From an uncultured Chloroflexia bacterium (GTDB lineage Bacteria > Chloroflexota > Anaerolineae > JAAYZQ01): 64,000 bases of DNA. The stretch spans positions 184,568-248,567 of the forward strand of contig CAVPBH010000018.1 of assembly GCA_963701775.1 (NCBI GenBank), read 5' to 3'. The position numbers and the translations under genes are program-made. Each line of letters starts with the position of its first letter. Position 1 is the first letter of the stretch. Positions 27,758-50,899 of this stretch are shown piece by piece. The notes beneath the pieces were generated by a model that was not told the DNA's origin, did no database searches, and saw only the letters and a program-made list of their open reading frames with translations.

Positions 27758-28440
27758 GCAAGTCACAGACCGGCACGAGGCGCGCACTCTATCGCGGGTA
27801 TGTCTCGCAGCGGGGACACTTCGGCCGCGCCGTGCGGCTGAAATCGCCCGAAGAGGTCGCCGCCTTCCTCCGGGAGCACCTCTACGCGGAAGAGGTGCGG
27901 ATCGTCGACGCGGGCGACAACCTGCTTTTCCATGCCAGGGACGGTATCGACCTCTACTCGCGCCTGGCGGAGCTGGGGATTGACCTCCCGGCGCTGTACG
28001 ACGAAACCCGGCGCACGTGGGTAGCAGAGGCGGAACGGGCTCGGTCGGGAGACCTTCGCCCAACGCACGAGGGCGAGGGAGAGCCCGCGGCACGGGAGCC
28101 ATGGGAGGCGCTGTACGACTCTATCGGGCTGTCGTCGGGCGAGGTCTGGATGCGCCAACGGGTGAAGCGCACCTGCCGGGAGGCGCGCACGGTCGCCGAC
28201 GTGATCGAGCTGCTGGAAGGCACCTACTTCGACGCCCACTTTGAGACGGAGGACGGCCGCCGGGCTTGGGCCTACTTTGACGCGAGCGACTGCTCAGTCG
28301 AGGTGCTGCGGCCGGTCGGCGAGGATGCATGGCAGGGTGCGGACCGGCGCGTGCGGCTGGATCGGGCGGCTCGGGTGCGGCACAAGGGTTCCGGGGAGGA
28401 CGTGCACCTCTTTGTGCTGCTGGACCCGCCAGAGGGGTGA
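27754..28440 (+). CDS. hypothetical protein
   Basis: 228-aa ORF with protein-like composition. It is coupled by ATGA overlap to the aminopeptidase gene. No recognisable family. Confidence 0.55.
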   Translation: MSKSQTGTRRALYRGYVSQRGHFGRAVRLKSPEEVAAFLREHLYAEEVRIVDAGDNLLFHARDGIDLYSRLAELGIDLPALYDETRRTWVAEAERARSGDLRPTHEGEGEPAAREPWEALYDSIGLSSGEVWMRQRVKRTCREARTVADVIELLEGTYFDAHFETEDGRRAWAYFDASDCSVEVLRPVGEDAWQGADRRVRLDRAARVRHKGSGEDVHLFVLLDPPEG

Positions 28441-28481
28441 GGGGGTGTACTCCGCCACTCCACCCCTCCGGGCGGGTGTGC

Positions 28482-30455
28482 TTAAGGCAGGGCGTAGCGC
28501 AGGATGTACAGCCCGCCATCAAAATCGGCGATGTAGACGTTGGCGCCGTCGACTGCCACATCAAGCGCCCAGCCGGGCGTGTCAAACCAGCCGACCTCAA
28601 CTGGGTGCCTTGGGCGGGTGACGTCGATCACGCGCAGGCCATTGTCTCCATCAGCGATGTAGGCCAGCACCCGCCCTCCCGAGGCGTCGCCCACCGCCAG
28701 AGCCGGCGCAGGGCCCTGCGCCTGGATCCAGCCAACTTGGACCGGGTTCTTCTTGTCGGCCATGTCGAGGACATACAGCCCGTACGACGAATCGGTCACA
28801 TAGGCCACGTTGCCGCGTACCACCACGTCCATCGCCTGCCAGGGCGTTTGAAAGACGCCGATCTCGGCCGGGTTGGCCGGGTCGGACACGTCCACGATGC
28901 GCAGGCCGCCCTGTCCGGCGGCCACATAGGCGTAGCGCCCATCCACCGCCACATTTTCGGGGTTGCCGGGTAGGGCCAGGAACCCGATCTCTACCGGTTG
29001 AGCCGGCTTGTGGATGTCCACGATGCTCAGCCCAAGACCATCCTGGCCGGTGTCGGCGATGAAGGCATAGATGCCGGATATCGCCACCTGCCAGGCATGC
29101 AGGTCGGGCGTTTCGTATTGCCCCACCTTCACCGGGTTCCAGCGATCGGATACGTCGACCACCGTGAGCCCTCCCCAGCCGGCCGCGCCGTAGAGGTAGT
29201 CGCCGCGCTGCGCGACGCGAAAGTACCACTGGCCCTCTGCCATCCCGGCCAGCACCGGCTGCGCCGGGTCGGCCACATCCAGGGTGCGCGCGCCATAGCC
29301 CGACTCGCCCAGGTAGGCCCAGCCCTCCGAGGCCGCGATGCCGTCGGCTTCGGTCGCCAGGTCATAGCCGCCCACCAGCCACGGCGCGGCCGGGTCGGAG
29401 ACGTCGAGCACACGCAGCCCGTGGGCCGCATCGGCGATATAGGCATAGCCGCCAGCCACGCCGACACCCCAGCGGGCATCGATGCCATAGGAGCCCACAT
29501 GGACGGGATCGGCCGGGCTATCGACTTCGAGTATGTCTAGGCCGCCGCTGACGCCGGAGGCGACGTACGCATAGCCCTGGTCGTAAGCCGTCCAGAAGGC
29601 CCAATCAGGCGTCTGGTAGAAAGCCGCCTCGGTGGGGTTTGCCGGGTCGGAGACGTCGATGATGCGCAGGCCACCCGGACCATCGGCCACAAAGGCATAG
29701 TGGCCGACAACCGTCACGCCGAAGGCCTCGCCAGGTGTGTCGTAGGCACCCAGCTCAAAGGGGTTGTGCGGGTCGCTCACGTCGATGATACGTAGGCCAG
29801 ACAGCCTATCGGCGATGTAGGCCAGCCCGCCGCTCATTGCCACGCCGGTTGCGTCGCCGGGCGTGTCGCAGGCACCCAGCTCAATCGGATACGCCGGCTG
29901 CGTCACGTCCACGACGCGCAGGCCGGCCTCACCATCGGCCACGTAGGCGTAGGGCATCTGCAAGGCCACGCCCAGCGCATGACCCCCGGGCAGCGCGGCG
30001 CGACCTACCTGCACTGGGTGCGCCGGGTTCGTGATCTTGACGACCACCAAGCCCGCGTCGTCTACGGCGACGTAGGCATAACTCCCCGCGACGGCAGTGC
30101 TACCCGCCACACCGGGCATCGGCGCCGTCTGCCCGCGCAGCGCCGGGGCGGCTGGGTCGGCGATGTCCATCAGAAGGAGGCGTGGGCCGCTGCACATCGC
30201 GAGTAGTCCGTCTATGACGACCGGCGGGCACTGCCAGCCGCCGATCTGCCCTACCAGCGACACGTGCCACCGATTGGGAGGCGGCGATGGGGTAGGAGTA
30301 GGCGTAGGAGCAGGAGTTGGCGTGATGCTCGCTGCGCCGGTGCCGGCCGGTGCCCCATCCGAAAACACACGCAGCCGGCCCCACAGGGGACCGGCTGCCC
30401 AGACCAACACAAGAACCGATATCAGGCCCACTCGCAGGAATGGCGTGCGCTTCAT
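28482..30455 (-). CDS. secreted LVIVD-repeat beta-propeller protein
   Basis: The ATG at 30455 has an AAGGAG RBS. Signal peptide MKRTPFLRVGLISVLVLVWA, a TPTPAPTPTPTPSPPP linker, then ~14 LVIVD-type repeats (YAYVADGEAGLRVVDVTQPAYP...). The ORF-track start at 30716 is a spurious extension. Confidence 0.75.
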   Translation of the reverse strand: MKRTPFLRVGLISVLVLVWAAGPLWGRLRVFSDGAPAGTGAASITPTPAPTPTPTPSPPPNRWHVSLVGQIGGWQCPPVVIDGLLAMCSGPRLLLMDIADPAAPALRGQTAPMPGVAGSTAVAGSYAYVAVDDAGLVVVKITNPAHPVQVGRAALPGGHALGVALQMPYAYVADGEAGLRVVDVTQPAYPIELGACDTPGDATGVAMSGGLAYIADRLSGLRIIDVSDPHNPFELGAYDTPGEAFGVTVVGHYAFVADGPGGLRIIDVSDPANPTEAAFYQTPDWAFWTAYDQGYAYVASGVSGGLDILEVDSPADPVHVGSYGIDARWGVGVAGGYAYIADAAHGLRVLDVSDPAAPWLVGGYDLATEADGIAASEGWAYLGESGYGARTLDVADPAQPVLAGMAEGQWYFRVAQRGDYLYGAAGWGGLTVVDVSDRWNPVKVGQYETPDLHAWQVAISGIYAFIADTGQDGLGLSIVDIHKPAQPVEIGFLALPGNPENVAVDGRYAYVAAGQGGLRIVDVSDPANPAEIGVFQTPWQAMDVVVRGNVAYVTDSSYGLYVLDMADKKNPVQVGWIQAQGPAPALAVGDASGGRVLAYIADGDNGLRVIDVTRPRHPVEVGWFDTPGWALDVAVDGANVYIADFDGGLYILRYALP

Positions 30456-30587
30456 CGGGTCACACTCCTTTCTTCCTCTAGGACGGCGAGCAGTCCGAGA
30501 AGGTTCCCTCAGGCAGGGGCACGCACGAATGGGCACGAGGCCCTGCACCACGAGCGGGGGGACGGGCACAGCGCCCCGAAATGGAAC

Positions 30588-30616
30588 CTCCCCGAAAGCC
30601 ACAGGCTTTCGGGGAG
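30588..30616. terminator. perfect 13-bp stem hairpin CTCCCCGAAAGCC-aca-GGCTTTCGGGGAG
   Basis: Seen directly in the sequence, downstream of the minus-strand gene 30682-31266. There is no T-tract. A related hairpin lies at 33587-33615. Confidence 0.35.
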
Positions 30617-30681
30617 GTGTTACCTTCCAATCCAGGCCGGTCCTGTGCCGGTTTTGGGCAGGCACCAGGACTCTACGGCTG

Positions 30682-31266
30682 CTAGCAGACGGGGCACTCC
30701 TCACCCCCCGCAACAAGTCTTGCTTTGCCGAGCTCTATGCCCACGGCACCCAACAGCGGATCGACGCTGTCGTAATCACGACCCATGGCGGCCAGGCTGC
30801 GAGAATCGATCCTGATCCCTACGGCGCCCAGCAGCGAGTCCGTAGCGAGGGCCGCGTCACGGGCGATCTGAGATCTGAGCCTCTCGACGTAGAAGGCCGA
30901 GATGTCCGTCTGGGGCTTGGCCTGCGCCCGGAGTCTCTCAACGTAGTAAGCCGAGACATCGGTGTAGCGCAGGCCCGGGTCCACCCGGAGCGGGACGCTC
31001 GCCAGGATCAGCCCCGCAACTTCGGGGAACGGCTCTTCGCGGTCACTTTCGCTTGCGAGCACAACGCGCGCGAGGACCGGCCCCGCGACCTCGGGGAACG
31101 GCTCTTCCCGGTCGCCTTCCTGCGCGAATACTACCGAGCCCGGAAGGGATCCCAGTGGCCCCAACACCAGGGCCACGATTATGAGGGCCGCCAAGGCGAC
31201 CCACGCGTATTTGGTTCTTGGTACTTGAGCGACGTCGCTCCGACTCTGGGTTCTGCCAGTCATCAT
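30682..31266 (-). CDS. membrane-anchored protein with internal tandem repeats
   Basis: N-terminal TM helix (YAWVALAALIIVALVLGPL). The peptide repeats EGDREEPFPEVAG.., TDVSAYYVERLR.. and LLGAVGI.. each occur twice, encoded by ~45-bp and ~66-bp tandem DNA repeats at 30895-31130. Confidence 0.55.
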   Translation of the reverse strand: MMTGRTQSRSDVAQVPRTKYAWVALAALIIVALVLGPLGSLPGSVVFAQEGDREEPFPEVAGPVLARVVLASESDREEPFPEVAGLILASVPLRVDPGLRYTDVSAYYVERLRAQAKPQTDISAFYVERLRSQIARDAALATDSLLGAVGIRIDSRSLAAMGRDYDSVDPLLGAVGIELGKARLVAGGEECPVC

Positions 31267-31508
31267 TTCTTCCTCCCCTATCTAGGTTCTCAGTACTTGA
31301 TTGTCAATCAGGGCCTCGCCCTGTTTACACTAACTCTAGGATAGTTATACCTGATCGCACGGGAACGCGCATCGGCCATACTACGAGTTCTTTGACTGAG
31401 ATTCCTGCAAGTCCGTCCACGGACCTACGCAGGAATGCGTACAGACGCAGGTCAAGCCACCCGCATTTCCAACTCGCTTGACACCCCGCTGATTCCGGCC
31501 CATAATCA

Positions 31509-31539
31509 GGTGCAACGCACCGCGAAGGTGCGTCGCACC
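31509..31539. promoter_or_regulatory. near-perfect palindrome GGTGCAACGCACC-gcgaa-GGTGCGTCGCACC immediately upstream of the OYE gene RBS
   Basis: A 12/12-bp inverted repeat with one mismatch and a 5-nt spacer, ending 4 nt before AGGGAGG. The same half-site GGTGCAACGCACC occurs at 25998-26010, and GAAGGTGCGTCGCA occurs at 50108-50121. It could be an operator or an RNA hairpin. Confidence 0.35.
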
Positions 31540-31551
31540 AAGGGAGGTCGC

Positions 31552-32734
31552 ATGGCACAAGCGAACACGGCAGGCAAGGCGTTCACCCCCGGCCGCATCG
31601 GCGGGCTGGAGCTGCGCAACCGGATCATCCGCGCCGGCTGCTTCGAGGGGATGAGCCAAGGGGGACGCGTCACCCCGGCCTTGATCGAGCACCATCGCCG
31701 CGTGGCCGCCGGCGGCACGGCGATGACGACCGTGGCCTACTGCTCCGTCTCGTTCGACGGGCGCGCCTTTGGCCACGAGCTGTGGATGCGGGAGGAGATC
31801 GTGCCCGGCCTGCGCGAGCTGACGGACGCCGTGCACCGCGAAGGCGCGGCGGCGTCGATCCAGCTCGGCCACTGCGGTTTTTTCGCCAGCCCCAAGGAGA
31901 TCGGACTGCGGCCCATCGGCGCGTCGCGCAAGCTGTGCCTCTTCCGGATGTCGCGCTGCGAGGAAATGACGGAGGCGCAGATCGAGACCAAGATCGAGGA
32001 GTTTGCCCAGGCGGCCCGCTGGGCGCGGCAGGCCGGATTTGACGCGGTCGAGATCCACTCCGGGCACGGCTACCTGCTCAGCCAGTTCCTCTCGCCCTGG
32101 ACCAACCACCGCCGCGACCGCTACGGCGGCTCGTTGGAGAACCGGCTCCGCTTCCCCGCGGCGGTGGTGCGCGGCGTGCGCGCAGGCGCTCGGGCCTGGC
32201 TTCCCTGTGCTGGTGAAGATGAACCAGCGCGACGGGATGCGCGGCGGGCTGGAGATGGAGGAGGCGGTGCAAATCGCGCAGCGCTACGAGGCCGAGGGGG
32301 CCAGCGCTCTGGTGCCGAGCTGTGGCTTTACCGCCAAGACGCCGCTGTACATGATGCGCGGCGACGTCCCGACGCGGGAGATGGCACGCAACCAGGCCCA
32401 GCTCATGACGCGCATGGGGATGCTGCTTTTCGGCCGCTTCATGGTGCAGCGCTATCCGTTCGAGCCGCTCTTCCTGCTGGAGGGGGCGGTCCGCCTCCGG
32501 CAGGCGGTGTCGATCCCGGTGGTCTACGTGGGCGGCGTGCTGTCTCTGGCCGACCTGGAGCGGGCGATGGAGACAGGCTTCGAGTTTGTGGAGGTGGGCC
32601 GGGCGATCGTCAAGGACCCCGAGTTCGTACACAAGCTGCAGTCCGGCGCGCTGGAGGCGTCGGACTGCGATCACTGCAACCGGTGCATCGCGACGATGGA
32701 TGCCGGCGGGGTGTACTGCCCGACGGAGACGTAG
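31552..32734 (+). CDS. NADH:flavin oxidoreductase (Old Yellow Enzyme family), frameshift at ~32195
   Basis: The ATG at 31552 follows AGGGAGG. It is OYE-like up to ...RLRFPAAVVRGVR. The C-terminal half (QALGPGFPVLVKMNQRDGMRGG...CDHCNRCIATMDAGGVYCPTET*) is in the +1 frame. Comparison with the paralog at 35028-35888 points to one extra base in gtgcgcgcaggcgctc. Confidence 0.8.
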
Positions 32735-32743
32735 GGCGGGGCG

Positions 32744-32850
32744 ATAAAGCGCGCGAGCTCCTGGCCGGCGTCTACGCCTGGCTCACCGAAGGGCTCGACG
32801 TCCTCGACCTGGTGCAGGCGCGGGCCATGCTGGGCGGGGCGGAGGCATAG
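32744..32850 (+). pseudogene. orphan C-terminal fragment of a SARP/AAA/TPR-type regulator
   Basis: Encodes ARELLAGVYAWLTEGLDVLDLVQARAMLGGAEA*, matching the last 30 aa of the 46428-50090 gene (DEARELVAGAYAWFSEGFDLRDLAQARAML*). Nothing upstream of it is coherent. Confidence 0.45.
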
Positions 32851-33326
32851 CAGTCGAATACCCCCTACGGCCAGCGAGCCGGACGGGCTGTAGGTGCCCG
32901 GCGATGTGATGGTCAGGTAGCAGCCGCCCGAGTCGCCATGGTCGTCGGGCACCAGGTAGGCGCCGAGCGACTTCTTGAACGCCTCTGCCGCTTTGATGGG
33001 TACGACGTGCTTGCGCTCGAACCGGTCGAACTTGATGCTATGGCTCAGGTCTGACATCTCTTCCGCGACTGGCTTGCGGGCGCATCCCACAAGACCATGC
33101 TCAGTGTAGCACAGCGATAGGGAAGATCTGTGGAGAGCGCCTGGAGAAGCCGTGCAGAGTCACAACTAGGAGAGCCCTGGCCATATGACCTGGGCTCTCT
33201 CTGAGTGGTTCTCTCCTCATGCCGGGAAAACCTCTGCTGTGCCGTTCATAGAGATAGAACCCAGGTGAGAAAGGACTTGGCCGCTCACCTGCTCAAGGGG
33301 TTCAAGAACAAGGAAAGGAGGGAACG

Positions 33327-33554
33327 ATGATTATCCAGCCGATCAACCTTCAGCTCGCCGCCCAGGACCTGCGGTTCCCGGAGGTGCGCGCACGGGAAGA
33401 GGAGCGCATCCGTGCCGCCCAGGCGCAGCCGGCCAGCAGCAACTCACCGCGGCTCGTGCGCCGGCTTCTCGCCGCTCTGAACCGGGAGCTGCGCCGGAAC
33501 AAGCCGCAGGCGGCCCCGCAGGTCGCTGTGCAGCTCAAGCCGAGTGCCCGGTAG
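33327..33554 (+). CDS. small basic hypothetical protein (75 aa)
   Basis: Strong AAGGAAAGGAGGGAAC-ATG RBS. The gene sits in a lower-GC island (33100-33330) and is followed by a perfect 12-bp hairpin at 33587-33615. Confidence 0.4.
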   Translation: MIIQPINLQLAAQDLRFPEVRAREEERIRAAQAQPASSNSPRLVRRLLAALNRELRRNKPQAAPQVAVQLKPSAR

Positions 33555-33891
33555 GGGCCCGTGCAATCCAGGCAGACTCTCCCACCCTCCCCGAGGGCTC
33601 GCCGCCCTCGGGGAGCCTGTGAGGCCCCCCTCACACCGGCCGGCCACATGACCCGCAGAAGCGCGCCGCGGTCCGAGCCTGGCCCCGCACTGGCCACAGA
33701 AGGCGGGCCACATGGCAGCGCGCGGCACGCCGGGTGCGGCGCACCTTCAAGGATACTGTTGGCTAACTTTGGAGGAAAGGGAGGTCATGACCCCATTGGC
33801 CGTCTCAGCGAAGCCATCCGCGCTGGACAGTGCGCTCAATGAGACGCAGAGCTGCCTTTGGGCAGGTTCATGCCTTCCTTTCCTTCTCCTG

Positions 33892-35025
33892 CTACGCTCT
33901 CAGTGTTAGTCTCAAACTTTGTCGTTTGGCTTGATGGCGCTCTCCGGCAAGCCAGCGGGCTGCACGTCGCAGATTGACTGCTGCCCCGGTGAACAATGCC
34001 TGCAAGTGGATCTTGGCAGTGCTGACGTAGCGCCCGATGCGGATGCCATGTCCTCGGACCAAAGCCGACAGACAGCCTTCGACCCCTCCTCGATGCTGAC
34101 GATACAGTGTTTTGAACTCCGCGGTTTCTTGGCGGGTACGTGCCGCTTGCAGGGCCAGGTAGTTCCGACCCAAACTGATGTGCCGCCCACCTTTGCCTGT
34201 GCAGCACCGGGGCCGCAAAGAGCAAGCAGCGCAGACCGCCTTCGGAAAGCGGAAGACCAAACGCTTGCCTCGCTTTGTGCCGACGATTGCCTTCTGACCT
34301 GCTGGGCAGATCGCTGTGCACTCTGCCAGGTTCACTTCGAATTGCGCCAGGGTGATGCCATCGGGCAGTCGGGATTGCAGCCGATTGTCTTTTTTCGCCG
34401 GCCCGATCAGGTCGATGCCCCGCTCACCACTACCAACCAGGTTGTCCTCCGTCACATAGCCACCATCGCCCAATTGCTGTCCGGGCAGCAGGTCTCGTGC
34501 CTCGAGCCGGTTCTGGATGGCTTCCAGCGCGCGGTAGTCCGTCTCCACACTGCTGGTGATGGCGATATCCGTGAGCAGGTGTGGCTTGTCTTCGTCATCC
34601 GTCTCCGTTGCTTGCAGTTTGTAGCCTACCCAGCCCTGCCCTCTCTTCTCGCTGTAGCGGGCCTCGGGGTCGTGGGGCGTAACGATGTGCGTCCTGCCAT
34701 CATAGACCCCTGCATCCCGAGCCACCAAGTCCCCTCCCACAACCGTGAACTGCTGCTGCCACGTCGTGACCAACACCTGGACCGCAGGCAAGTCCCGCAG
34801 CTTGGCTGCATTCCCATCTGCCTCTATCCGCTCCAGGAGCCACTGCCCATCGGGTCCTACCCGCCTGGCCAGCGCCTCCCGTTCGGCTTCGGTCAGCTTC
34901 TCGATCACACACCGCTGGCCGTAGCTATCTTCCCATGTGGCCGGCACTGCCGCTCTTGTCCAGGTTTCGTCTTCTTTCAACAAAGCCTGCAAAGCCAGCC
35001 GCACAGTCTCCACCCACTGCTCCAT
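33892..35025 (-). mobile_element. IS1182/IS5-family DDE transposase, 5'-truncated
   Basis: 377 aa with DPEARYSEKRGQGWVGYKLQ, a DDE core and a C-terminal ...RYVSTAKIHLQALFTGAAVNLRR. It lacks the usual ~100-aa N-terminal HTH region. Its start codon abuts, within 2 bp, the truncated OYE paralog. No terminal inverted repeats were identified. Confidence 0.65.
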
Positions 35026-35027
35026 TC

Positions 35028-35888
35028 GACGGGCGCGCCTTTGGCCACGAGCTGTGGATGCGGGAGGAGATCGTGCCGGGCCTGCGCGAGCTGACGGATG
35101 CCGTGCACCGCGAAGGCGCGGCGGCGTCGATCCAGCTCGGCCACTGCGGTTTCTTCGCCAGCCCCAAGGAGATCGGGCGGCGGCCCATCGGCGCGTCGCG
35201 CAAGCTGTGCCTCTTCCGGATGTCGCGCTGCGAGGAGATGAACGAGGCGCAGATCGAGACGAAGATCGAGGAGTTTGCCCAGGCGGCCCGCTGGGCGCGG
35301 CAGGCAGGATTTGATGCGGCCGAGATCCACTCAGGGCACGGCTACCTGCTCAGCCAGTTCCTCTCGCCCTGGACCAACCACCGGAGGGACAGGTACGGAG
35401 GATCGCTGGAGAACCGGCTGCGCTTCCCGGCGGCGGTGATGCGCAGCGTGCGGCAGGCGCTCGGGCCGGGCTTCCCGATCCTGGTGAAGGTGAACCAGCG
35501 CGACGGGATGCGCGGGGGCGTCCCGACGCGGGAGATGGCCCGCAACCAGGCTCAACTCATGACGCGCATGGGGATGCTGCTTTTCGGCCGCTTCATGGTG
35601 CAGCGCTATCCGTTCGAGCCGCTCTTCCTGCTGGAGGGGGCGGTCCGCCTCCGGCAGGCAGTGTCGATCCCGGTGGTGTACGTGGGCGGCGTGCTGTCTC
35701 TGGCCGACCTGGAGCGGGCGATGGAGACAGGCTTCGAGTTTGTGGAGGTGGGCCGGGCGATCGTCAAGGACCCCGAGTTCGTACACAAGCTGCAGTCCGG
35801 CGCGCTGGAGGCGTCGGACTGCGATCACTGCAACCGGTGCATCGCGACGATGGATGCCGGCGGGGTGTACTGCCCGGCGGAGGAGTAG
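35028..35888 (+). pseudogene. truncated paralog of the 31552-32734 OYE gene
   Basis: Nearly identical to the first copy from FDGRAFGHELWMREEIVPGL to ...DAGGVYCPAEE*. It lacks the first ~68 codons and has an in-frame ~39-codon internal deletion. The ORF-track N-terminal extension to 34935 is antisense to the transposase. Confidence 0.65.
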
Positions 35889-35904
35889 GGGAGGCAAGAT
35901 CGGA

Positions 35905-35943
35905 CCCTCACTCCAACCCTCTCCCCCGAAGGGAGAGGGAGAA
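35905..35943. repeat. GC-rich hairpin element CCCTCACTCCAACCCTCTCCC-ccgaa-GGGAGAGGGAG (copy 2 of 2)
   Basis: Perfect 9-bp stem. It lies directly downstream of the truncated OYE paralog and pairs with the element at 24605-24645. Confidence 0.4.
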
Positions 35944-36041
35944 TGCGCCCCCATTCAGCCTCCCCCGCCGCGACAGGGGAGGGGAAAGAGGGGCGGCCCT
36001 CCGTGGCCGCCCCTTCGGTCAGGCCGGGAATGGAATCCCGG

Positions 36042-38413
36042 CTATGGGATGGTGACGGTGTCGCACGTCTCACCATTCTGGTCCGGGTCGTAGACCCAGC
36101 CGGAGAGCACCACATCCGTTATGCAGATTTTCCAGGTGCCGAGCTGGTTGAGAAGTACCTTGAAACTCGCGGCGCCCAGGGGGTTGGTCAGACTGACTTG
36201 CGCCTTCGGCCTGCCGCTGGGCGGGATCCACTCGGCCTGCACACTCGCTCCTGCCACCGGGCCGCCGCCGGCGTCCAGGACACGCACCAGGCCCCGGATC
36301 GCGAAGCGCCAGTGGCCCAGGTAGACGACCCTCAGCTTGATCCACTCCACGTGCATCGCTCCCAGCGGCGCTACCGTCACGGTCTGCTGCACAGACTCTT
36401 GCCCGCACGCGTTGCTTGCCGTCATGGTGACGGCATAGTCGCCGAAGGCGGCATAGGTGTGCGATGCCGGGTTGCCGGTGTCCGTCCCGCCGTCGCCAAA
36501 GTTCCAGGCGTAGTCGATGGGCTCACTGCCAGCGGCGGTGCCGGTGACGGTCACCACCTCGCCCATGGTCGGCGACGGGGAATCCACGTGAAGCCGGTGC
36601 CCGACACCGGCTCGAGCACCTTCAGCTGCACCGCCAGAGCCACCTGCGGCGTGTCGGGGTCGTTGCTGTTGACGAGCAGGCTGCCGGCGTAGGTGCCGGC
36701 GCCCAGCCCGGCCGAGTCAAAGGTAAGGATCACGTCCACACACTCGCCCGCGAGGAGCGTCGTGCCCGCCGGCTCCTCGGTCAGCCAGTCGAGTGCCTCC
36801 GACAGGCTCCAGACCAGGTCGGCCGTGCCGGCATTGCAGATCTGGACGGCAAGCTGCGCAGACCCGCCGGGGCAGAGCTCCGCTTCGAGCAGCGGCGCGG
36901 TCACCACGATGTTGGGGAAGGGAGGCGTCTCCACCTGGACGAGCTGGCCCAGGACCTCCACCTCGCCTTCCGCCAGCGGTGCCACGTCGTCTTCGCCCTG
37001 CCAGGCCACTAGGACCAAGTCACCGCCGGCCTGCGCGGCCAGGGCGGGCCGGCCGGCGCCGTAGGCGGGGTCGCCGTCGGGCCCGGCATCGCTGAGGCGC
37101 ACCGGGTCGCCGGCCAGGTCGCCCGTGCCTTCCAACATCTGGCAGAAGACCTCCATCTCGTCGTCGGCCAGCGGTCCGCTGCCCCAGTCGTGGTTGTCGT
37201 CGCCACGCCATGCCACCAGGTAGCGCCCGGGCGCGGCCAGGTAGGCCACAGCCGGTGCCCAGGCCCGGTAGGCCGGGTCGCCATCGGGGCCCATGCTGCT
37301 GATGCGGAAGCCGCTCACACCGACGGGGCTGCCGTCGGCTGCCAGGCGCTGTCCGTGGATCTCAATCTCACCCAGAGACAGGGCCGGCCCCCCTTCGTCG
37401 CCCGCCCAGATGACCAAGTACTCGCCGGTGTCATCGTTGTAGGCCACCGCCGGCCGGCGCGCCTGGTAGGCCGGGTCGCCGTCCGGCCCGGCGGCGCTGA
37501 TGCGAAAGCTCGGCAGCCCCACCAGGCTGCCGTCGGCGGCCAGGCGCTGGCCAAAGACCTCGTACTCGTCGTCGACCAGGGGTTCAGCGTCTGTGTCCCC
37601 CTCCCAGGCGACCAGGCATTCGCCGGCATCGCCGCACGCCAGCGCGGGCTCCTGGCCTCGGAACCCGGTATCGGCCGGGTCCGAGCCCATCTGGCTGATG
37701 GAGAAATCGTTCACGCCTACCTCGGCCGCGGCTGCATCCAGCCGCTGGCCAAAAATCTCGACGGCGTTATCCATCGAGTCGTCCCCCTGCCAGGCCACCA
37801 GGTACTCGCCCGAAACGGCGTTGTGGGCGACGGCAGGGTTGAGGGCATCGAAGGCCGGGTCGCCGTCGGGGCCCATGTCGCTGATGCGCACCGCCGATCC
37901 GAGCAGGCTACCGGCGGCGTCCAGCCGCTGGCCGTAGATCTCGAGCTCTCCGGCGGCCAGCCCGGCGGCTGCGCCGCCGGCCACCCAGACGACCAGGTAC
38001 TCGGCGGCAGCCGGGTTGTAGACCAGAGCCGGGTCGCGGGCGTAATAGGCAGGATCGCCATCCGGCCCGGTGGTGCTGATCCGGAAGCGCGCGCCCAGCA
38101 GCGTGCCGTCGCCGGAGACGCGCTGGCCGTAGATCTCGAACTCGTCATTGCCCAGCGGCGCCGCCTCGTCGTCGGCAGCCCATACCACCAGGAACTCGTC
38201 GCCGTCCGGGTTGTGCGCCACGGCCGGGTCGAGCGCGTAGAAGCGGGTATCGCCGTCGGGCCCCATCGCGCTGATGCGCAGGTCATTGGGGCCGATCTCT
38301 CCGGCGATCCCCGGCTGCGCCGCGGCCGGACCGGCCTGCCCGCCGGCCAACGCCAGCAGGACAAGGACCACCACCAGGACGCCGCAGGTCAGAGCTGTTC
38401 TTTGTCTTGCCAT
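36042..38413 (-). CDS. secreted protein: seven ~55-aa RIS-MGPDGDPA repeats, a W-SLSE/SNDPD beta-sandwich, a PKD domain and the shared C-terminal domain; frameshift at ~36586
   Basis: ATG at 38413 with a GGAGGAGG RBS. Signal peptide MARQRTALTCGVLVVVLVLLALA. The repeats read NDxRISxMGPDGDPAxxAxxPAVAxN..EYLVVW..DD......DExEIxGQRL. The PKD domain (EPIDYAWNFGDGGTD) and C-terminal domain (..GTWKICITDVVLSGWVYDPDQNGETCDTVTIP) are in the overlapping frame. Confidence 0.7.
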
Positions 38414-46427: not shown

Positions 46428-49400
46428 ATGCAGGCACGGCTGAAAATCCGCCTGCTGGGGACCTTTGACGTGGTCCTCGACGGCGCGCCCCTGGCGGGCT
46501 TCCGGTCGGCCAAGGTGCGCGCGCTGCTTGCCTACCTGGCGGTCGAGACGGACGCCCTTCATCGTCGCGAGGCCCTGGCAACCCTCCTGTGGGGCGAATT
46601 TCCCGAGCGCGACGCCCAGCGCAGCCTGAGCCAAGCGCTAAGCAACCTGCGCGGCCTGCTTGCGCCCCTCTCGCCGGAAGCGGCACCGCCGGGGCCGGGT
46701 ATGGAAACCCGACCTACGGCCTCTGCTCCTTCGGAGCCGGTGCTGGAGATCACCGGCCAGAACGTTCGCCTGCGCGTGGAGCCGGAGCGGGCGTGGGTGG
46801 ACGTGCACGCCTTTGACGCACTCCTGGGGGCTGCCGGCCTGCGCGGCGCCGCGGCGCCGGAAGGCTCCGCCCAGGCCAGGCTGCTTGCCCAGGCGATCGA
46901 TTTGTATCGCGGTCCCTTCCTTTCCGGCCTGTCGCTGCCCGACAGCCCGGAATTCGAGGAGTGGCGGCTACTCCAGCAGGAGCAGCACCACCAGGCCGCG
47001 CTGCTCGCCCTGGAGCGGATGGTCGACCACCACCTGGCGGAGGGGCACACGGACGAGGTAGAGCGTTTTGCCCGCCGGCAGCTCGGGCTCGAACCCTGGA
47101 ACGAGGTCGCCCACCAGAGCCTGATGCTTGCCCTGGCGCTCAGCGGCCGGCGGGGGGCGGCCCTCCGCCAATTTGAGACCTGCCGCAGCGTCCTGGCCGA
47201 TGAGCTGGGCGTCGAGCCCTCGGCCGAGACCGAAGCGCTGCGCAGGCAAATCCGCGATGGCACCTGGAACGATCTGGCGCCGCCTGCCCGCAGCCCGGCT
47301 GGCGCCTTCTCTGGCCTGTCTCCTTCTGCCTTTGTGTCCCGGGAGCGGGAGACGGCGCGGCTCGAGCACTTCCTCGACCTGGCGCTCGCCGGGCAGGGAC
47401 ACGTCGTCCTGGTCACCGGCGAAGCGGGGACGGGCAAGACGGCACTCCTGGCGCACTTTGCCAAGCGCGCGGTGACGGCCCACCGGAGATTGGTAGCGAC
47501 CGCCGGGCGATGTAGCGCCTTCGCCGGCCTGGGCGATCCACTCCTGCCCTTTCGCGAGATCCTCCAGGGGCTCTGCTGCGAGGCATCGAGTGTTTCTGCC
47601 GGCTCCTCCCAGAACCCGGACCACATGCGCCGGCTGTGGGCGCTCTTTCCTTCGGCAGCCCAGGCTCTGGTTGAGCACGGCCCCGACCTGGTCGGCCGCT
47701 TTGTGCCGGTCGAAGATCTGGAGGCCCGCGCCGCGACCCTGGCCCCGCCCGGGGCGTCCTGGCTGGCGCGGCTTGCCGAGCTGAAAGTGGCACGGTCAGG
47801 AGACCGGCCACAGCGAGCTGCGCTCCAGGAAGCGCTCTTTGACCAGGTGACGCGCGTCCTGCTGACCATCGCCCGCAGGCAGCCCCTGCTACTACTCATC
47901 GACGACCTACAGTGGGCCGATGCGGCCTCTCTCAGCCTACTATTTCACCTGGGGCGGCAGCTTACCGCCTCCCGCATCCTGGTCGTCGGCGCCTACCGGC
48001 CGAGCGAGGCAGTGCAAGAAGACCCTGGCAAAGACCCTACGGGTCTTCCGAGACCCCTAGGGTCTATGGCCCACGAGTTTGCCCGGCAGTGGGGCGACAT
48101 CCGCATCGACCTGGATCGGGCAGGGGGCCGGCGCTTCGTCGATGCGCTGCTGGATGCCGAGCCAAACCGGCTCGGAGAGGCCTTTCGCGAGAGGCTGACC
48201 CGCCATACCGGCGGCCACCCCCTCTTCACAGTCGAGATGCTGCGCGCCTTCCAGGAGCGGGGCGAGCTGGTGCTCGACGAGGAGGAGCGCTGGGTCGAGG
48301 GGCCGGCGCCGCACGGCGAGGGGTTGCCGGCGCGCGTCGAGGCGGTCATCGGCGAGCGCATCGACCGGCTGCCGCGCGCCTGGCGCCGGGTCCTGGAAGC
48401 GGCCTGCATCGAGGGGGAGACGTTCAGCGCCGAGGTGGCTGCCCGCGCCACCGGCACAGAGCCGGCCTGGGTGCGCGAGCTGCTGAGCGGCCCGCTCTCT
48501 GCTGAGAGCCGGCTGGTGCAGCCGCTCGGGGTGCAGCTCCTGGGGGACACGGGAGGGGCTCTGTCGCGCTATCGCTTTGGCCACGCCCTCTTCCACGAAT
48601 ACCTGTGCTGCCACATGGACGCAGTGCAGCGGTCGAGGCTGCACGCCGAGGTGGGCGGCGCCCTCGAGACACTCTGCCGGGGCGAGCAGGTCGCGCTCGC
48701 CGAGGTCAGCCCGCAACTGGCGCACCACTACGAGGAGGCTGGGCTGGCCGGCCAGGCGGCGCACTTCCTGCTCTTGGCCGGGCGCCGCGCCACACGCCTG
48801 ACGGCCTACTCGGAGGCAATCTCCCTCTATCAGCGTGGGCTGGCCCAACTGGAACAGGTGCCTGGGTCAGACGAGCGTAGCCGGCGGCAGATCGAGCTCT
48901 ACTTGGCGCTCGACACCCCCCTCTACGCCGCACGCGGCTGGGGCGCGCCCGAGCGGGCCCAGCTCCTCCACCATGCACACCGCCTAGCCCGCCGCCTGGA
49001 TGAGCCCGAGCCGCTCATGCGCGTCCTACTCCTGCTGACTGACATCCACACCTGGCTGGGGGAAGACCTCCAGGCGCTACAGTGCGCCGAGGAGCTGCTC
49101 TGCCGGGCGGAGGTCGAGCAGGACACATTCTACCTGGCAGCCGGCCACCTGGCCGCCGGGCTGAGCAATCTCCCCCAGGGGCACCTGGCCGCAGGGCGCA
49201 TTCACCTGGAGAGGGCTTGGGCGCTCGGGTCACCCGGCGCAGGGCAGCCTGCCGCCCAGGGGCCGGCGGAGCAGCGGCCGGTGCGCCCGCCGCTGCTGCC
49301 GGTTGCCGACACGGACCTGGCCGCTACCGCGCTCACCTGGCTGAGCACTACCCTGTTTTTGATGGGCTACGGCGACCAGGCCCTCTCCGCCAGCCGGCGT

Positions 49401-50090
49401 GCCCTGGCCCGCGTGGACGAGCTGGCCGATCCCCTCACCAGTCTGCTGGTGGTCATGGTAGCCGGCGCCGCCTTCCACGCGATACGCGGCGATGCGACCG
49501 CTTCGCAGGCGGAATCGGAGCGGCTTCTCGCCGTGACCGATCGCTACGGCCTGCCGCTCGGCAAGGGTTGGGCCGTCTTCTTCCGGGGTTGGGCACAGGT
49601 GGACCGGGGTGAAGAGACGGACGGCCTGGCGGCCATGCGCACCAGCCTGAAGATCGTGCATGGGGGAGGCGCGCAGGCCTTCCGGCCGATGCTCCACTGC
49701 CTCATGGCCGAGGCGCTCTTGCGTGCCGGCCAAGCCGGAGAGGGGCTGGAGGTGCTGGCCGACGTCGGCCCCCACGCCGGGCGGGTGTTCGAGGCCGAGG
49801 TGCACCGGCTGCGCGGCGAGCTGCTGCTGAAGGCAGACCATGGACCACAGACCATAGACCGGGGTCCGTCGTCCGCCGCCGAAGCCGAGGTCTGCTTCCG
49901 GCGCGCGCTGGAGGTGGCCCGCCGGCAGGAAACTCACCTCTTCGAGCTGCGCGCGGCGATGAGCCTGGCGCGGCTGTGGCAGGCGCAGGGCCGGTCGGAC
50001 GAGGCACGCGAGCTGGTGGCCGGCGCCTATGCCTGGTTCTCCGAGGGGTTCGATCTGCGCGACCTGGCGCAGGCGCGGGCGATGCTCTAG
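46428..50090 (+). CDS. SARP-family (AfsR-like) transcriptional regulator: OmpR-type wHTH, BTAD, AAA ATPase and TPR domains
   Basis: MQARLKIRLLGTFDVVLDG... winged-helix plus BTAD domain, then Walker A GEAGTGKTALL, a long TPR region and the C-terminal AYAWFSEGFDLRDLAQARAML. GGGGAGAAAGGG RBS. The ORF-track start at 45699 is a spurious 243-aa extension. Confidence 0.8.
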   Translation: MQARLKIRLLGTFDVVLDGAPLAGFRSAKVRALLAYLAVETDALHRREALATLLWGEFPERDAQRSLSQALSNLRGLLAPLSPEAAPPGPGMETRPTASAPSEPVLEITGQNVRLRVEPERAWVDVHAFDALLGAAGLRGAAAPEGSAQARLLAQAIDLYRGPFLSGLSLPDSPEFEEWRLLQQEQHHQAALLALERMVDHHLAEGHTDEVERFARRQLGLEPWNEVAHQSLMLALALSGRRGAALRQFETCRSVLADELGVEPSAETEALRRQIRDGTWNDLAPPARSPAGAFSGLSPSAFVSRERETARLEHFLDLALAGQGHVVLVTGEAGTGKTALLAHFAKRAVTAHRRLVATAGRCSAFAGLGDPLLPFREILQGLCCEASSVSAGSSQNPDHMRRLWALFPSAAQALVEHGPDLVGRFVPVEDLEARAATLAPPGASWLARLAELKVARSGDRPQRAALQEALFDQVTRVLLTIARRQPLLLLIDDLQWADAASLSLLFHLGRQLTASRILVVGAYRPSEAVQEDPGKDPTGLPRPLGSMAHEFARQWGDIRIDLDRAGGRRFVDALLDAEPNRLGEAFRERLTRHTGGHPLFTVEMLRAFQERGELVLDEEERWVEGPAPHGEGLPARVEAVIGERIDRLPRAWRRVLEAACIEGETFSAEVAARATGTEPAWVRELLSGPLSAESRLVQPLGVQLLGDTGGALSRYRFGHALFHEYLCCHMDAVQRSRLHAEVGGALETLCRGEQVALAEVSPQLAHHYEEAGLAGQAAHFLLLAGRRATRLTAYSEAISLYQRGLAQLEQVPGSDERSRRQIELYLALDTPLYAARGWGAPERAQLLHHAHRLARRLDEPEPLMRVLLLLTDIHTWLGEDLQALQCAEELLCRAEVEQDTFYLAAGHLAAGLSNLPQGHLAAGRIHLERAWALGSPGAGQPAAQGPAEQRPVRPPLLPVADTDLAATALTWLSTTLFLMGYGDQALSASRRALARVDELADPLTSLLVVMVAGAAFHAIRGDATASQAESERLLAVTDRYGLPLGKGWAVFFRGWAQVDRGEETDGLAAMRTSLKIVHGGGAQAFRPMLHCLMAEALLRAGQAGEGLEVLADVGPHAGRVFEAEVHRLRGELLLKADHGPQTIDRGPSSAAEAEVCFRRALEVARRQETHLFELRAAMSLARLWQAQGRSDEARELVAGAYAWFSEGFDLRDLAQARAML

Positions 50091-50137
50091 GCAGAAGCCG
50101 GCGCACAGAAGGTGCGTCGCATCTGATTCCGGCCCTG

Positions 50138-50899
50138 CTAGTGGGTCAGGATCTGGCTCAGGAAGAGCCGGGTGCGCTCCGACTTGGGGTTGGCAAAGAA
50201 CTCGGCGGGGGGCGCCTCTTCGACGATCACGCCCTCATCAAAGAAGACAATCCGGTCACACACCTCGCGGGCAAAGCCCATCTCGTGGGTGACCACGATC
50301 ATGGTGATGCCCGAGCGGGCCAGGCCGCGCATCACATCCAGCACCTCTTTGATCATCTCCGGATCGAGCGCCGAGGTCGGCTCGTCAAAGAGCATGATCT
50401 TGGGCTCCATCGCCAGGGCGCGGGCGATCGCCACCCGCTGCTGCTGCCCGCCCGAGAGCTGCCCAGGGAACTTGTTCGCCTGCTCGGGGATGCCCACCCG
50501 CTGCAGCAGGCGCAGCGCGGCCTCTTCGGCCTTGGCCTTGGGCCAGCGCTTTACCCAGATCGGCGCCAGCGTGATGTTCTGCACGACCGTCAGGTGGGGA
50601 AAGAGGTTGAACGACTGGAACACCATCCCGATCTCGCTGCGGACGGTGGCGATGTTGCGCACGTCGTGGGTCAGCTCGATGCCGTCGACGATGATGTCGC
50701 CCTTCTGGTGCTCCTCCAGCCGGTTGATGGTGCGGATAAAGGTCGACTTGCCCGATCCCGAAGGACCGCAGATGACGACCACCTCGCCCTTCTGGATGGT
50801 GATCGTGATGCCCTTCAGCACGTGAAAGTCGCCGAACCACTTTTCGACGTTCCGGCAGACGATGATGCCTTCGCCGGCGCCCGTTGCAGCTTCTACCAT
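50138..50899 (-). CDS. polar amino acid ABC transporter ATP-binding protein
   Basis: Walker [10 protein letters not shown], signature [15 protein letters not shown] and Walker [11 protein letters not shown]. Confidence 0.9.

Follow-up and report, generated by a model that had tools for sequence, protein, structure and literature searches.

How did a short interval of DNA from an uncultured Chloroflexota-like bacterium come to hold two damaged copies of an oxidoreductase gene, with a cut-off transposase gene between them and an orphan piece of a regulator gene close by? An earlier note read the arrangement as a rearrangement scar in which IS-mediated duplication and deletion had shuffled gene fragments. 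We re-analyzed it in the window (the whole 64-kb stretch of DNA under study) and compared it with contigs L090, L091, L095, and others, which are short (1.5-2.5 kb) metagenome assemblies from other samples. The ingredients of that description are present, namely a duplicated OYE gene, an IS1182 remnant, and a regulator tail; an IS-mediated mechanism is not supported, given a joint internal to the element, no second IS in the window, scars that differ in age, and a dS of 0.14 between the gene copies. The interval is, in our judgment, probably a non-functional, strain-variable patch assembled by several independent events of differing age rather than by one IS-driven event, in which diverged alleles would have been joined by illegitimate recombination and then left to decay. 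The features on which the question turns are the following.

31478..31506, + strand: sigma-70-like promoter TTGACA-17-CATAAT, matching the consensus at 11/12 positions, upstream of copy A
31552..32734, + strand: OYE copy A, OYE family (PF00724), full length but in two frames
32181, + strand: extra C in copy A, at alignment column 632, which only A occupies
33731..35024, - strand: IS1182-family remnant, 1294 of ~1870 bp, right terminus intact
33731..33768, + strand: right terminal inverted repeat, CGGGTGCGGCGCACCTTCAAGGATACTGTTGGCTAACT; window/L095 homology ends at 33727|33728
33892..35025, - strand: truncated transposase ORF, 377 aa, with an ATG made by the joint (the codon's first base comes from the OYE side)
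35024..35025, no strand: illegitimate joint of codon 68 of copy B to the interior of the IS, with no microhomology at the break itself
35025..35888, + strand: OYE copy B, minus codons 1-67 and 39 internal codons
35507..35519, + strand: joint left by a 117-nt deletion in copy B (= A 32237-32353)

The duplication of the OYE gene is evident from two BLAST matches, one between 31753-32249 and 35025-35519 (93.6% identity, E = 0) and one between 32353-32736 and 35507-35890 (97.4% identity, E = 0); at 94-97% nucleotide identity, copy B forms a 0.9-kb repeat 2.3 kb from A. The second copy is N-terminally truncated and internally deleted, as had been described: codons 1-67 and an in-frame 117 nt are missing, its match to PF00724 covers positions 75-338 with a 39-aa gap inside, and its reading frame is otherwise open. 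The 117-nt segment is bounded in A, L090, L091, L092, and L010 by the direct repeat GATGCGCGG(C/G)G, of which B keeps a single copy; with repeats of 9-11 nt, the lesion has the form of a slipped-strand or short-repeat deletion. Copy A had been taken to be intact, but a 1-nt insertion at 32181 (GTGCG[C]GCAGG), present neither in copy B nor in L090, L091, L092, or L010, splits it into an N-terminal part of 210 codons and a C-terminal part of 183 codons in separate frames, the first of which covers PF00724 positions 3-213 and the second the rest (3-338 with the frames joined). That this frameshift is an assembly or base-calling error is conceivable but rather unlikely; the long ORFs elsewhere in the window show no breaks. 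Neither copy thus holds the uninterrupted full-profile PF00724 ORF of a TIM barrel, and on this basis neither should be expected to give an active TIM-barrel enzyme.

Copy A is 95% and 92% identical to P0121 and P0122, intact 393-396-aa members of the ~393-aa "2,4-dienoyl-CoA reductase-like" form of the Old Yellow Enzyme (OYE)/NADH:flavin oxidoreductase family, and both copies keep the C-terminal CxxCxxC...C motif. They depart from that family in that A is frameshifted and B lacks profile positions 1-74, 39 internal residues, and a promoter. The only promoter-like site in 31200-36200 is that of copy A, and a scan of the same interval found no promoter or 5' end trace of copy B.

With dS at 0.14 and dN/dS at 0.16 (omega 0.157), the copies differ mostly at synonymous positions; they are not recent duplicates but sequences that have diverged under purifying selection. 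Direct repeats of 0.9 kb lying 2.3 kb apart would not last long. Because the differences are mostly synonymous and close direct repeats are unstable, A and B are most likely diverged alleles of related lineages, set side by side by a recombination of which one end was illegitimate; an ancient in-place duplication of the OYE gene is less likely. A particular form of in-genome origin deserves weighing: an old duplication with both paralogues functional, an intact IS upstream of B, and then a single deletion running from the IS interior to codon 67 of B. We think this possible but not probable. One deletion would account for the 35024|35025 joint, the A-B dS is lower than that of either copy to L090 (0.23-0.25), and gene conversion between resident paralogues could be the reason why A and B differ by only 2 mismatches over the last 320 nt. 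However, repeats of this size a few kilobases apart are unstable, so that a dS of 0.14 is unlikely to have been reached while selection acted on both, and the 5' end and promoter of copy B have left no trace. The comparison with L095, given below, bears on the same point. Divergence between A and B is also uneven along the alignment (max-chi2 p = 0.047).

The element between the two copies is a member of the IS1182 family (NF033551), which includes IS1272 of Staphylococcus, and the earlier description of its transposase gene as 5'-truncated was right, although the loss amounts to ~158 aa rather than ~100 aa. The ORF aligns with positions 158-488 of the 488 in NCBIfam NF033551, its score of 191.5 bits falling under the cut-off of 270 through truncation; it shares the family's DDE_Tnp_1_6 domain (PF13751, residues 239-355, E = 4.7e-18) and is 72-78% identical to full-length metagenomic transposases of 525-539 aa. 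Full-length relatives measure ~535 aa, and the alignment to one of them (P0005, 535 aa) begins at its residue ~159. PF05598 (DUF772), present in those relatives, is absent from the window ORF. Of ~1870 bp, the right-hand 1294 remain; with the left ~576 bp, the element has lost its left inverted repeat, its 5' untranslated region, and ~158 codons including DUF772. The N-terminal part of the transposase was not found anywhere in the 64-kb window, nor was a second IS copy or fragment, and the core of the inverted repeat has a single match there, at 33750-33768, whereas full IS copies (L001-L008) carry both inverted repeats; the ~38-nt repeat is common to independent copies. Of what a functional IS1182 element needs, the remnant keeps the DDE domain and lacks a full-length transposase, DUF772, and two inverted repeats; judged from these losses, it cannot be mobile. 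A 377-aa product of exactly this sequence has a record on a single contig. The element lies in a hairpin-rich spacer 3' of genes, and IS1272 has been reported to choose stem-loops as its targets and to make no target duplications (PMC5678879).

A genuine IS insertion did occur at 33727|33728-33731, because the DNA that the window has in excess of L095 starts exactly at the right terminus of the element. Between the empty site in L095 and the insertion point there is a 3-nt ambiguity; the left IS end is missing from the window.

The other end of the remnant is of a different kind. The start of the transposase ORF abuts the OYE fragment, as had been noted, at 35024|35025, a position inside the transposase gene and ~576 bp from the expected left end of the IS. 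When a transposase makes deletions or duplications, they start from the ends of the IS, which itself stays whole; here the breakpoint is not at a terminus and the IS is not intact, and for a recombination between two IS copies the window contains no flanking or bridging copy. Because 35024|35025 falls inside the IS, transposition did not make this joint: the element is its casualty and not its shown cause, and we infer that it was a bystander that was cut through. The microhomology reported here, CYACTGCTCC, does exist as a 10-nt similarity, but it lies 1-6 nt off the joint and is borderline in significance (8-nt shared word, p ~0.02).

An exact junction scan of JGI metagenomes gave no match to the IS|OYE-B joint, and this contig is the only one to show either this joint or A and B together. 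Because the source is a contig (256,590 bp) of a metagenome-assembled genome, because similar samples contain related strains side by side (86-95% identity), and because the joint is not seen elsewhere, one might suspect a chimeric or mis-joined contig in which the locus of one strain was placed next to that of another. We hold this to be very improbable: near the joint, the IS interior and OYE have no more than 8 nt in common, too few for any assembler k-mer overlap to have made 35024|35025; copy B has a private 117-nt deletion, as expected of real decayed DNA; and two further joints of the locus are reproduced independently in other assemblies. These joints lie between copy A and the IS, among the following features.

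32749..32850, + strand: relic of a SARP-type regulator gene, last ~33 codons, joined directly to the copy A stop codon
32885..33049, - strand: orphan ORF running into the antisense of the regulator relic
33327..33554, + strand: gene for a small protein of 75 aa, conserved
33579..33623, no strand: GC-rich hairpin 3' of the small gene
35904..36020, no strand: hairpin-rich 3' region after copy B, including a REP-like element
36042-36587, - strand: convergent PKD-domain gene after the 3' region of copy B
46428..50090, + strand: full SARP-type regulator gene (Trans_reg_C/BTAD/AAA_16/TPR), with a 3' end paralogous to the relic

The orphan fragment does match the C-terminus of the regulator at 46428-50090, as proposed, with 82% nucleotide identity between 32749-32831 and 50004-50086 and 22/32 amino acids identical. 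Compared with large SARP regulators (Trans_reg_C + BTAD + AAA_16 + TPR), it is a C-terminal tail with no domain left: no Pfam match was found in it, no BTAD or ATPase domain is present, and only the last 32 aa align. It is decaying, because it differs from L095 by a 5-nt indel. For the minus-strand ORF (32880-33049 in the earlier note), no family is assignable, in line with its description as unassignable; against L095 it shows 3 synonymous and 4 non-synonymous changes and one 3-nt indel, a roughly neutral pattern, and it is probably a gene remnant or a spurious ORF. The small ORF at 33327-33554, which had been counted among the shuffled fragments, is instead a conserved real gene by its substitution pattern: it is 99.1% identical to its L095 counterpart, with 2 synonymous and 0 non-synonymous changes between flanks at 90-95%, and it has homologues at 97, 56, 55, and 47% identity with the common motif AAxDLxFxEVRAREE. 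It is the only gene in the interval expected to function now. The adjoining 33555-33727 is likewise ~99% identical to L095.

Synteny with relatives separates old scars from recent ones. L090 shares the upstream gene, the OYE gene, and the regulator-relic joint, while L095 carries, at 94.6% identity, the OYE tail, the relic, the minus-strand ORF, the small gene, and the hairpin region; both the joint of the OYE stop codon to the relic and that of the relic to the minus-strand ORF are common to the two. Because contigs from other samples (L090, L095) contain them, these joints predate the IS joint, and neither the regulator-relic joint nor the minus-strand ORF belongs to the same event as the latter. 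In L091, the OYE gene lies directly beside the ABC gene region. The window and L095 diverge unevenly (99% vs 90-95%), which, like the uneven divergence between A and B, fits frequent recombination between strains.

Beyond 33727, L095 jumps directly to the ABC gene; the IS, copy B, and ~15 kb after them are missing there, so that the window has an extra 16.4 kb relative to it, counted from the IS end. The absence of these parts as one block bounded by the IS terminus fits an acquired block better than the in-genome origin considered above. The same block invites the view that the IS1182-family element drove the duplication and deletions, by its transposase or by IS-IS recombination: the remnant sits exactly between A and B, the strain-specific 16.4-kb block starts at its terminus, and an IS-terminus-like palindrome lies at the block's other boundary, 50110. 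We consider this improbable, since the joint with copy B is ~576 bp inside the IS instead of at a terminus, the 64 kb contain a single inverted repeat and lack any further IS fragment, and the regulator and minus-ORF joints are older than the IS; the palindrome, moreover, need not be an IS relic, its family having members also at 25997 and, in the IS-free contigs L090 and L091, in front of the OYE gene.

The sequence shows the following events, to which the joining of diverged alleles is the background that we prefer. Old deletions fused the OYE stop codon to the terminal ~100 nt of a paralogue of the SARP regulator, and the relic so formed to the start of the minus-strand ORF; both joints are inherited, because related strains carry them. 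An IS1182-family element entered the hairpin-rich spacer that follows the small conserved gene, and the right end of this element is the exact point of departure from the IS-free L095. A non-homologous joint links the IS interior, at residue ~158 of the transposase, to a second OYE allele at its codon 68; after this allele come its own terminator region, the PKD-gene block, and the full SARP regulator, ~15 kb up to the ABC ATPase gene. This event destroyed both the IS and copy B. Copy B later lost its 117 nt between short direct repeats, in the pattern expected of replication slippage, and copy A gained its +1 frameshift. A search for a relative with an intact OYE gene before the PKD block returned distant matches only, and because no such relative was found, we can only infer whether copy B was imported or is a paralogue, and in which direction the event ran.

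Homology-facilitated illegitimate recombination and arrays of orphan fragments have precedents (PMC5361080, PMC3240628). The former would leave one homologous junction, one illegitimate junction at a short GC-rich microhomology, and donor DNA that differs from the recipient; here an illegitimate junction and allele-level divergence are seen, but the shared 8-nt word lies 1-6 nt from the break and not at it, so that the window is at most a candidate case. As in the system of PMC5361080, a displaced, 5'-truncated older or alternative copy lies 3' of a full-length one, with one non-homologous joint and an allele-level difference that suggests import from a related strain; unlike it, the window has no toxin-immunity logic, no sign of selection for keeping the fragment, one displaced copy only, and no homologous anchor or donor that we could find.

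The locus is ordinary genomic wreckage of an already-known kind and reveals no new mechanism. Its main value is for annotation: the ORFs of the 377-aa "transposase," the 317-aa and 471-aa "oxidoreductase," and the 139-aa minus-strand product are pseudogene or chimeric products, to be excluded from functional gene counts and metabolic reconstruction. It also serves as a worked example of how old inherited scars can be told from recent ones with short metagenome contigs, in a population that exchanges and reshuffles DNA at this locus.

Two more features are palindromes.

31508..31540, + strand: palindrome AGGTGCr.CGCACC in two adjacent copies, between the copy A promoter and the ribosome-binding site/start codon
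50110..50124, + strand: the IS-terminus-like palindrome once more, flanked by the stop codon of the regulator gene and the convergent ABC ATPase gene

The AGGTGCr.CGCACC motif is the outer tip of the IS terminus and is conserved in front of the OYE gene, with two copies in L091 and one in L090. In its ~15-23-nt form, (TC)AGGTGCr.yGCACCT(GA), it forms the tip of IS1182-type termini and occurs in IS-free relatives in the 5' leader and 3' of OYE. Homology to L091 picks up at ~50098 and to L095 at ~50134, around the 50110 palindrome. One speculative and, we think, doubtful reading is that OYE lies in a hairpin-defined recombination hot spot, with the host palindromes as the element's preferred hairpin targets or as footprints of solo ends; alternatively, the leader palindromes may be an operator for a putative repressor that the IS ends mimic. 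If real, such a hot spot could explain why OYE is cut at differing places between strains, at codon 68 in the window, in L095 at ~codon 328, with fusion to an HlyD-like gene, and at stop-codon joints in L090, L091, and L095. Copy B itself is followed by a natural-looking convergent terminator region, and the REP-like element within 35904-36020 recurs at 24604-24643.

Comparison of the window with itself showed that a gene for an Old Yellow Enzyme (OYE; PF00724) occurs twice on the same strand, with the copies 93.6% identical between 31753-32249 and 35025-35519 and 97.4% identical between 32353-32736 and 35507-35890. The two copies and the features between them are as follows.

Features of the OYE/IS locus (window coordinates; L095 is a metagenome contig from a relative)
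31552-32734, plus strand: OYE copy A
32749-32850: relic of a SARP-type regulator gene
33049 down to ~32885, minus strand: ORF whose sole homologue among 5.8 billion proteins is the orthologous ORF of L095
33327-33554: conserved small gene
33731-35024, minus strand: IS1182-family remnant, 1294 of ~1870 bp
33892-35025, minus strand: truncated transposase ORF, 377 aa, covering positions 158-488 of 488 of NF033551, with PF13751
35025-35888, plus strand: OYE copy B

As an earlier note on this DNA had claimed, the gene is duplicated and its second copy is both N-terminally truncated and internally deleted: the first codon present in copy B is codon 68, and a further 117 nt (39 codons) that copy A and all orthologues retain are missing. 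In intact genes this segment is flanked at each end by GATGCGCGG(C/G)G as a direct repeat, of which one copy is left in B, so that its loss bears the signature of slippage or short-repeat deletion. Homology between A and B stops 2 nt past the stop codon on both sides. Copy A, previously taken to be intact, is in fact frameshifted. It is split over two ORFs in different frames (31435-32850 and 32003-32734), and alignment places one surplus base at 32181 (GTGCG[C]GCAGG) that is missing from copy B and from four orthologues on other contigs (L090, L091, L092 and L010), all of which are single-frame throughout. Since the remaining long ORFs of the window, which reach 1463 aa, are uninterrupted, pervasive indel error is unlikely; a local assembly error at 32181 is possible, though less likely than a true insertion. 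Upstream of copy A lies a strong promoter-like site (TTGACA-17-CATAAT, 31478-31506), the sole such site in 31200-36200, and none was found for copy B in that interval.

Over the 287 codons shared by A and B, dS is 0.14 and dN/dS is 0.157 (dS to the L090 orthologue is 0.23-0.25), from which it follows that the copies diverged while functional and that the disabling lesions came late. The mismatches are unevenly spread: the first 531 aligned positions hold 35 of them and the final 336 hold 6 (p = 0.047 in a max-chi2 permutation test). Divergence between the window and L095 is likewise patchy, and the pattern fits recurrent recombination among related strains. Both copies are pseudogenes; the ~393-aa NADH:flavin oxidoreductase subfamily to which they belong is an ordinary one, found widely among MAGs of Chloroflexota and other anaerobes. 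The GTDB representative genomes, which do not include the source genome, yielded 80 OYE loci, the best of them from an Anaerolineae MAG (82%); none has flanking genes in common with the window, and the gene thus resides in variable contexts.

The transposase gene between the copies is 5'-truncated and of the IS1182 family, as first read, with a match to NF033551 that starts at position 158. Its nearest relatives (72-78% identity, 525-539 aa) carry an N-terminal DUF772 domain, and a gap-free alignment to one full-length relative of 535 aa (P0005) sets in only at about residue 159, so that ~158 residues are lost rather than the ~100 proposed before. In full-length relatives, nine loci of which were used to define the ends of the element, a ~38-nt inverted repeat (CAGGTGCGTTGCACCTCCGAGGATACTGTTGGCGAACT) stands at both termini; the window holds exactly one copy, at 33731-33768, ~142 nt downstream of the transposase stop, the same spacing as in the relatives. 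The N-terminal domain and the second inverted repeat were tested for and are absent, and the element is therefore a dead remnant, not a functional member of its family. On L003, a contig with a full-length relative, a 97-nt near-perfect inverted repeat (1-97 and 1888-1984) surrounds the IS and reaches well past its ends; it may reflect insertion into a long palindrome or a fold-back assembly artefact of a short contig.

By aligning the window to the IS relatives on one side and to copy A on the other, we mapped the joint between remnant and copy B to 35024|35025: IS homology extends through ...CCACCCACTGCTCCA (last base 35024), and OYE homology runs from TTCGACGGG (first base 35025). The transposase start does abut the OYE fragment, as had been noticed, and the ATG of the 377-aa ORF is produced by the joint itself. 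Transposases cut at IS termini; because this joint lies within the transposase coding sequence, it is a product of illegitimate recombination, with the IS as its victim. A rearrangement driven by the transposase or by IS-IS events is poorly supported and improbable, given the internal position of the joint and the finding of no other piece of the element in the 64 kb. The similarity around CYACTGCTCC, proposed earlier as microhomology shared with copy A, is real but is offset by 1-6 nt from the break, and there is no microhomology exactly at 35024|35025; with an 8-nt shared word found between two 30-mers in ~2% of random pairs from the window, the match is of borderline significance, and microhomology-mediated joining at this motif was rejected. 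A search of JGI metagenome contigs with the exact 29-nt junction gave 0 matches, and the joint is known from this contig alone, as an assembly chimera would predict. We nevertheless hold a chimera to be very unlikely: no k-mer usable by an assembler is common to both sides of the joint, copy B has a private deletion, and two joints recur in independent assemblies.

Those assemblies are metagenome contigs of relatives. L090 (JGI 3300033416), whose OYE product is 95% identical, is colinear with window 30588-32798 and holds a 194-aa upstream gene and an intact OYE, which is joined at its stop codon in the identical way to the regulator relic; the initial ~60 nt of the relic are present. L095 (ENA ERZ27257600) matches window 32536-33727 at 94.6% identity, spanning the OYE tail, the relic, the minus-strand ORF, the small ORF and a hairpin region, and in L091 (ENA ERZ27266254), whose OYE is intact, sequence homologous to window ~50098-50457 sets in no more than ~25 nt downstream of that gene. 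Comparison of these contigs shows the joints OYE stop|relic and relic|minus-strand ORF to be inherited, with an origin that predates the separation of the strains. Past its homologue of 33727, L095 has ~20 nt and then sequence homologous to the window from ~50134 on (the end of an ABC ATPase gene). The 16.4 kb missing from it (33728 to ~50110-50133) comprise the IS remnant, copy B, a PKD-gene block and the SARP regulator, and their left edge coincides with the IS terminus to within 3 nt. The proposal of IS-mediated duplication and deletion thus keeps in its favour this block edge and the remnant between the copies, but the joint inside the IS and the inherited relic joints speak against it. 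In L095 (reverse complement, 1-420), the last 66 OYE codons are fused in frame to an HlyD/membrane-fusion-like ORF at a common "VLSLADL" stretch, an independent truncation at another position in the same gene, and the locus is structurally variable in every strain sampled. Scanning metagenomes with the PKD protein beside copy B for an intact OYE-PKD arrangement returned relatives of only 34-42% and was uninformative.

Just upstream of the locus there is a second strain-specific indel: in L090 the homologues of 28430 and 30588 are adjacent, and the 2.16-kb stretch 28431-30587 that it lacks, in minus-strand ORF 28482-30716, encodes a secreted repeat protein (744-aa ORF). The 194-aa minus-strand ORF upstream of OYE (30682-31266), a conserved hypothetical with no Pfam match that is syntenic in L090, contains a 69-nt internal tandem duplication (30995-31113, 86% identity).

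The regulator relic was correctly recognized as an orphan 33-codon fragment: it matches the 32 C-terminal residues of the SARP-type regulator at 46428-50090 (Trans_reg_C, BTAD, AAA_16, TPR) at 22/32 aa and 82% nt, and a 5-nt indel against L095 indicates that it is decaying. Pfam and NCBIfam scans assigned no family to the minus-strand ORF or to the small ORF. The former, which differs from L095 by 3 synonymous and 4 non-synonymous changes and a 3-nt indel, is probably a remnant or a spurious ORF; it is unassignable, as had been said, but its joint is inherited in the same form in L095. Its N-terminus may resemble VTC/CYTH-type starts, a likeness on which we do not rely. The small ORF does not belong among the shuffled fragments, where it had been placed: it is 99.1% identical to L095 with synonymous changes only (flanks 90-95%), has homologues at 97, 56, 55 and 47% identity with a common motif AAxDLxFxEVRAREE, and is a real gene of 75 aa. 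The lower-GC patch reported there exists (~55% GC) but is the intergenic region upstream of this gene. The gene and the 170-nt hairpin region after it (33327-33727) are together ~99% identical to L095, amid neighbouring DNA at 90-95%, which points either to strong constraint, perhaps imposed by a structured 3' region, or to a tract of recent recombination. When 30500-36500 was compared with Rfam, all matches were below threshold and attributable to chance.

The comparisons show that old deletions created the relic joints and that an IS1182-type element inserted after the small gene; IS1272 is a precedent for hairpin-directed insertion (PMC5678879). An illegitimate joint ties the interior of the IS to a diverged OYE allele at its codon 68, with ~15 kb behind it; copy B then lost its 117 nt by short-repeat deletion, and copy A is frameshifted. 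As direct repeats of 0.9 kb at a distance of 2.3 kb would be expected to be lost before reaching a dS of 0.14, we infer as the most likely history that the copies are alleles of related lineages put in tandem by recombination with one non-homologous end, in which either half may have been the incomer. Such an event would resemble homology-facilitated illegitimate recombination, known to leave displaced gene fragments (PMC5361080; PMC3240628). A paralogue long resident in this genome, with a deletion from the IS into OYE at a later time, is plausible, if considerably less probable.

The locus is real but ordinary, and the processes invoked (hairpin-directed IS insertion, illegitimate recombination, short-repeat deletion and frameshift decay) are all textbook. 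Its chief practical value is that it flags several mis-annotatable ORFs: 31435-32850, 34935-35888 and 33892-35025 would be called genes but are chimeras. Past the shift at 32181, the wrong frame of copy A stays open for ~220 codons and by chance enters the regulator relic in the relic's own frame, giving the misleading 471-aa ORF 31435-32850; ORF 34935-35888 (317 aa) consists of 30 codons of IS antisense and copy B.

The one mildly unusual side observation is the distribution of a palindrome, AGGTGCr.yGCACCT, the outer tip of the IS1182-type terminus, which has 5 copies in the 64 kb where 0.79 would be expected (0/100 shuffles reach 5).

Copies of the palindrome
Window: 25997, 31508, 31526, 33732, 50110
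L091: 76-91, 1323-1338
L090: 1185-1200

Of the window copies, two are in the 5' leader of OYE, where they separate the -10 box from the ribosome-binding site, and another is found 3' of the locus. The IS-free relatives L090 and L091 have the palindrome too; it may be an operator, a REP-like element, a hairpin targeted by the IS or the footprint of a solo IS end. Insertion of a 15-kb block inside the IS, with the 50110 palindrome as a left-end relic, was rejected, the same palindrome being present in L090 and L091 and at 25997 and 31508/31526. A separate REP-like hairpin (CACCCTCAC.CCAACCCTCTCCC....GGGAGAGGGAGAA) occurs twice in the window (35904-35943 and 24604-24643), each time just past a gene end.
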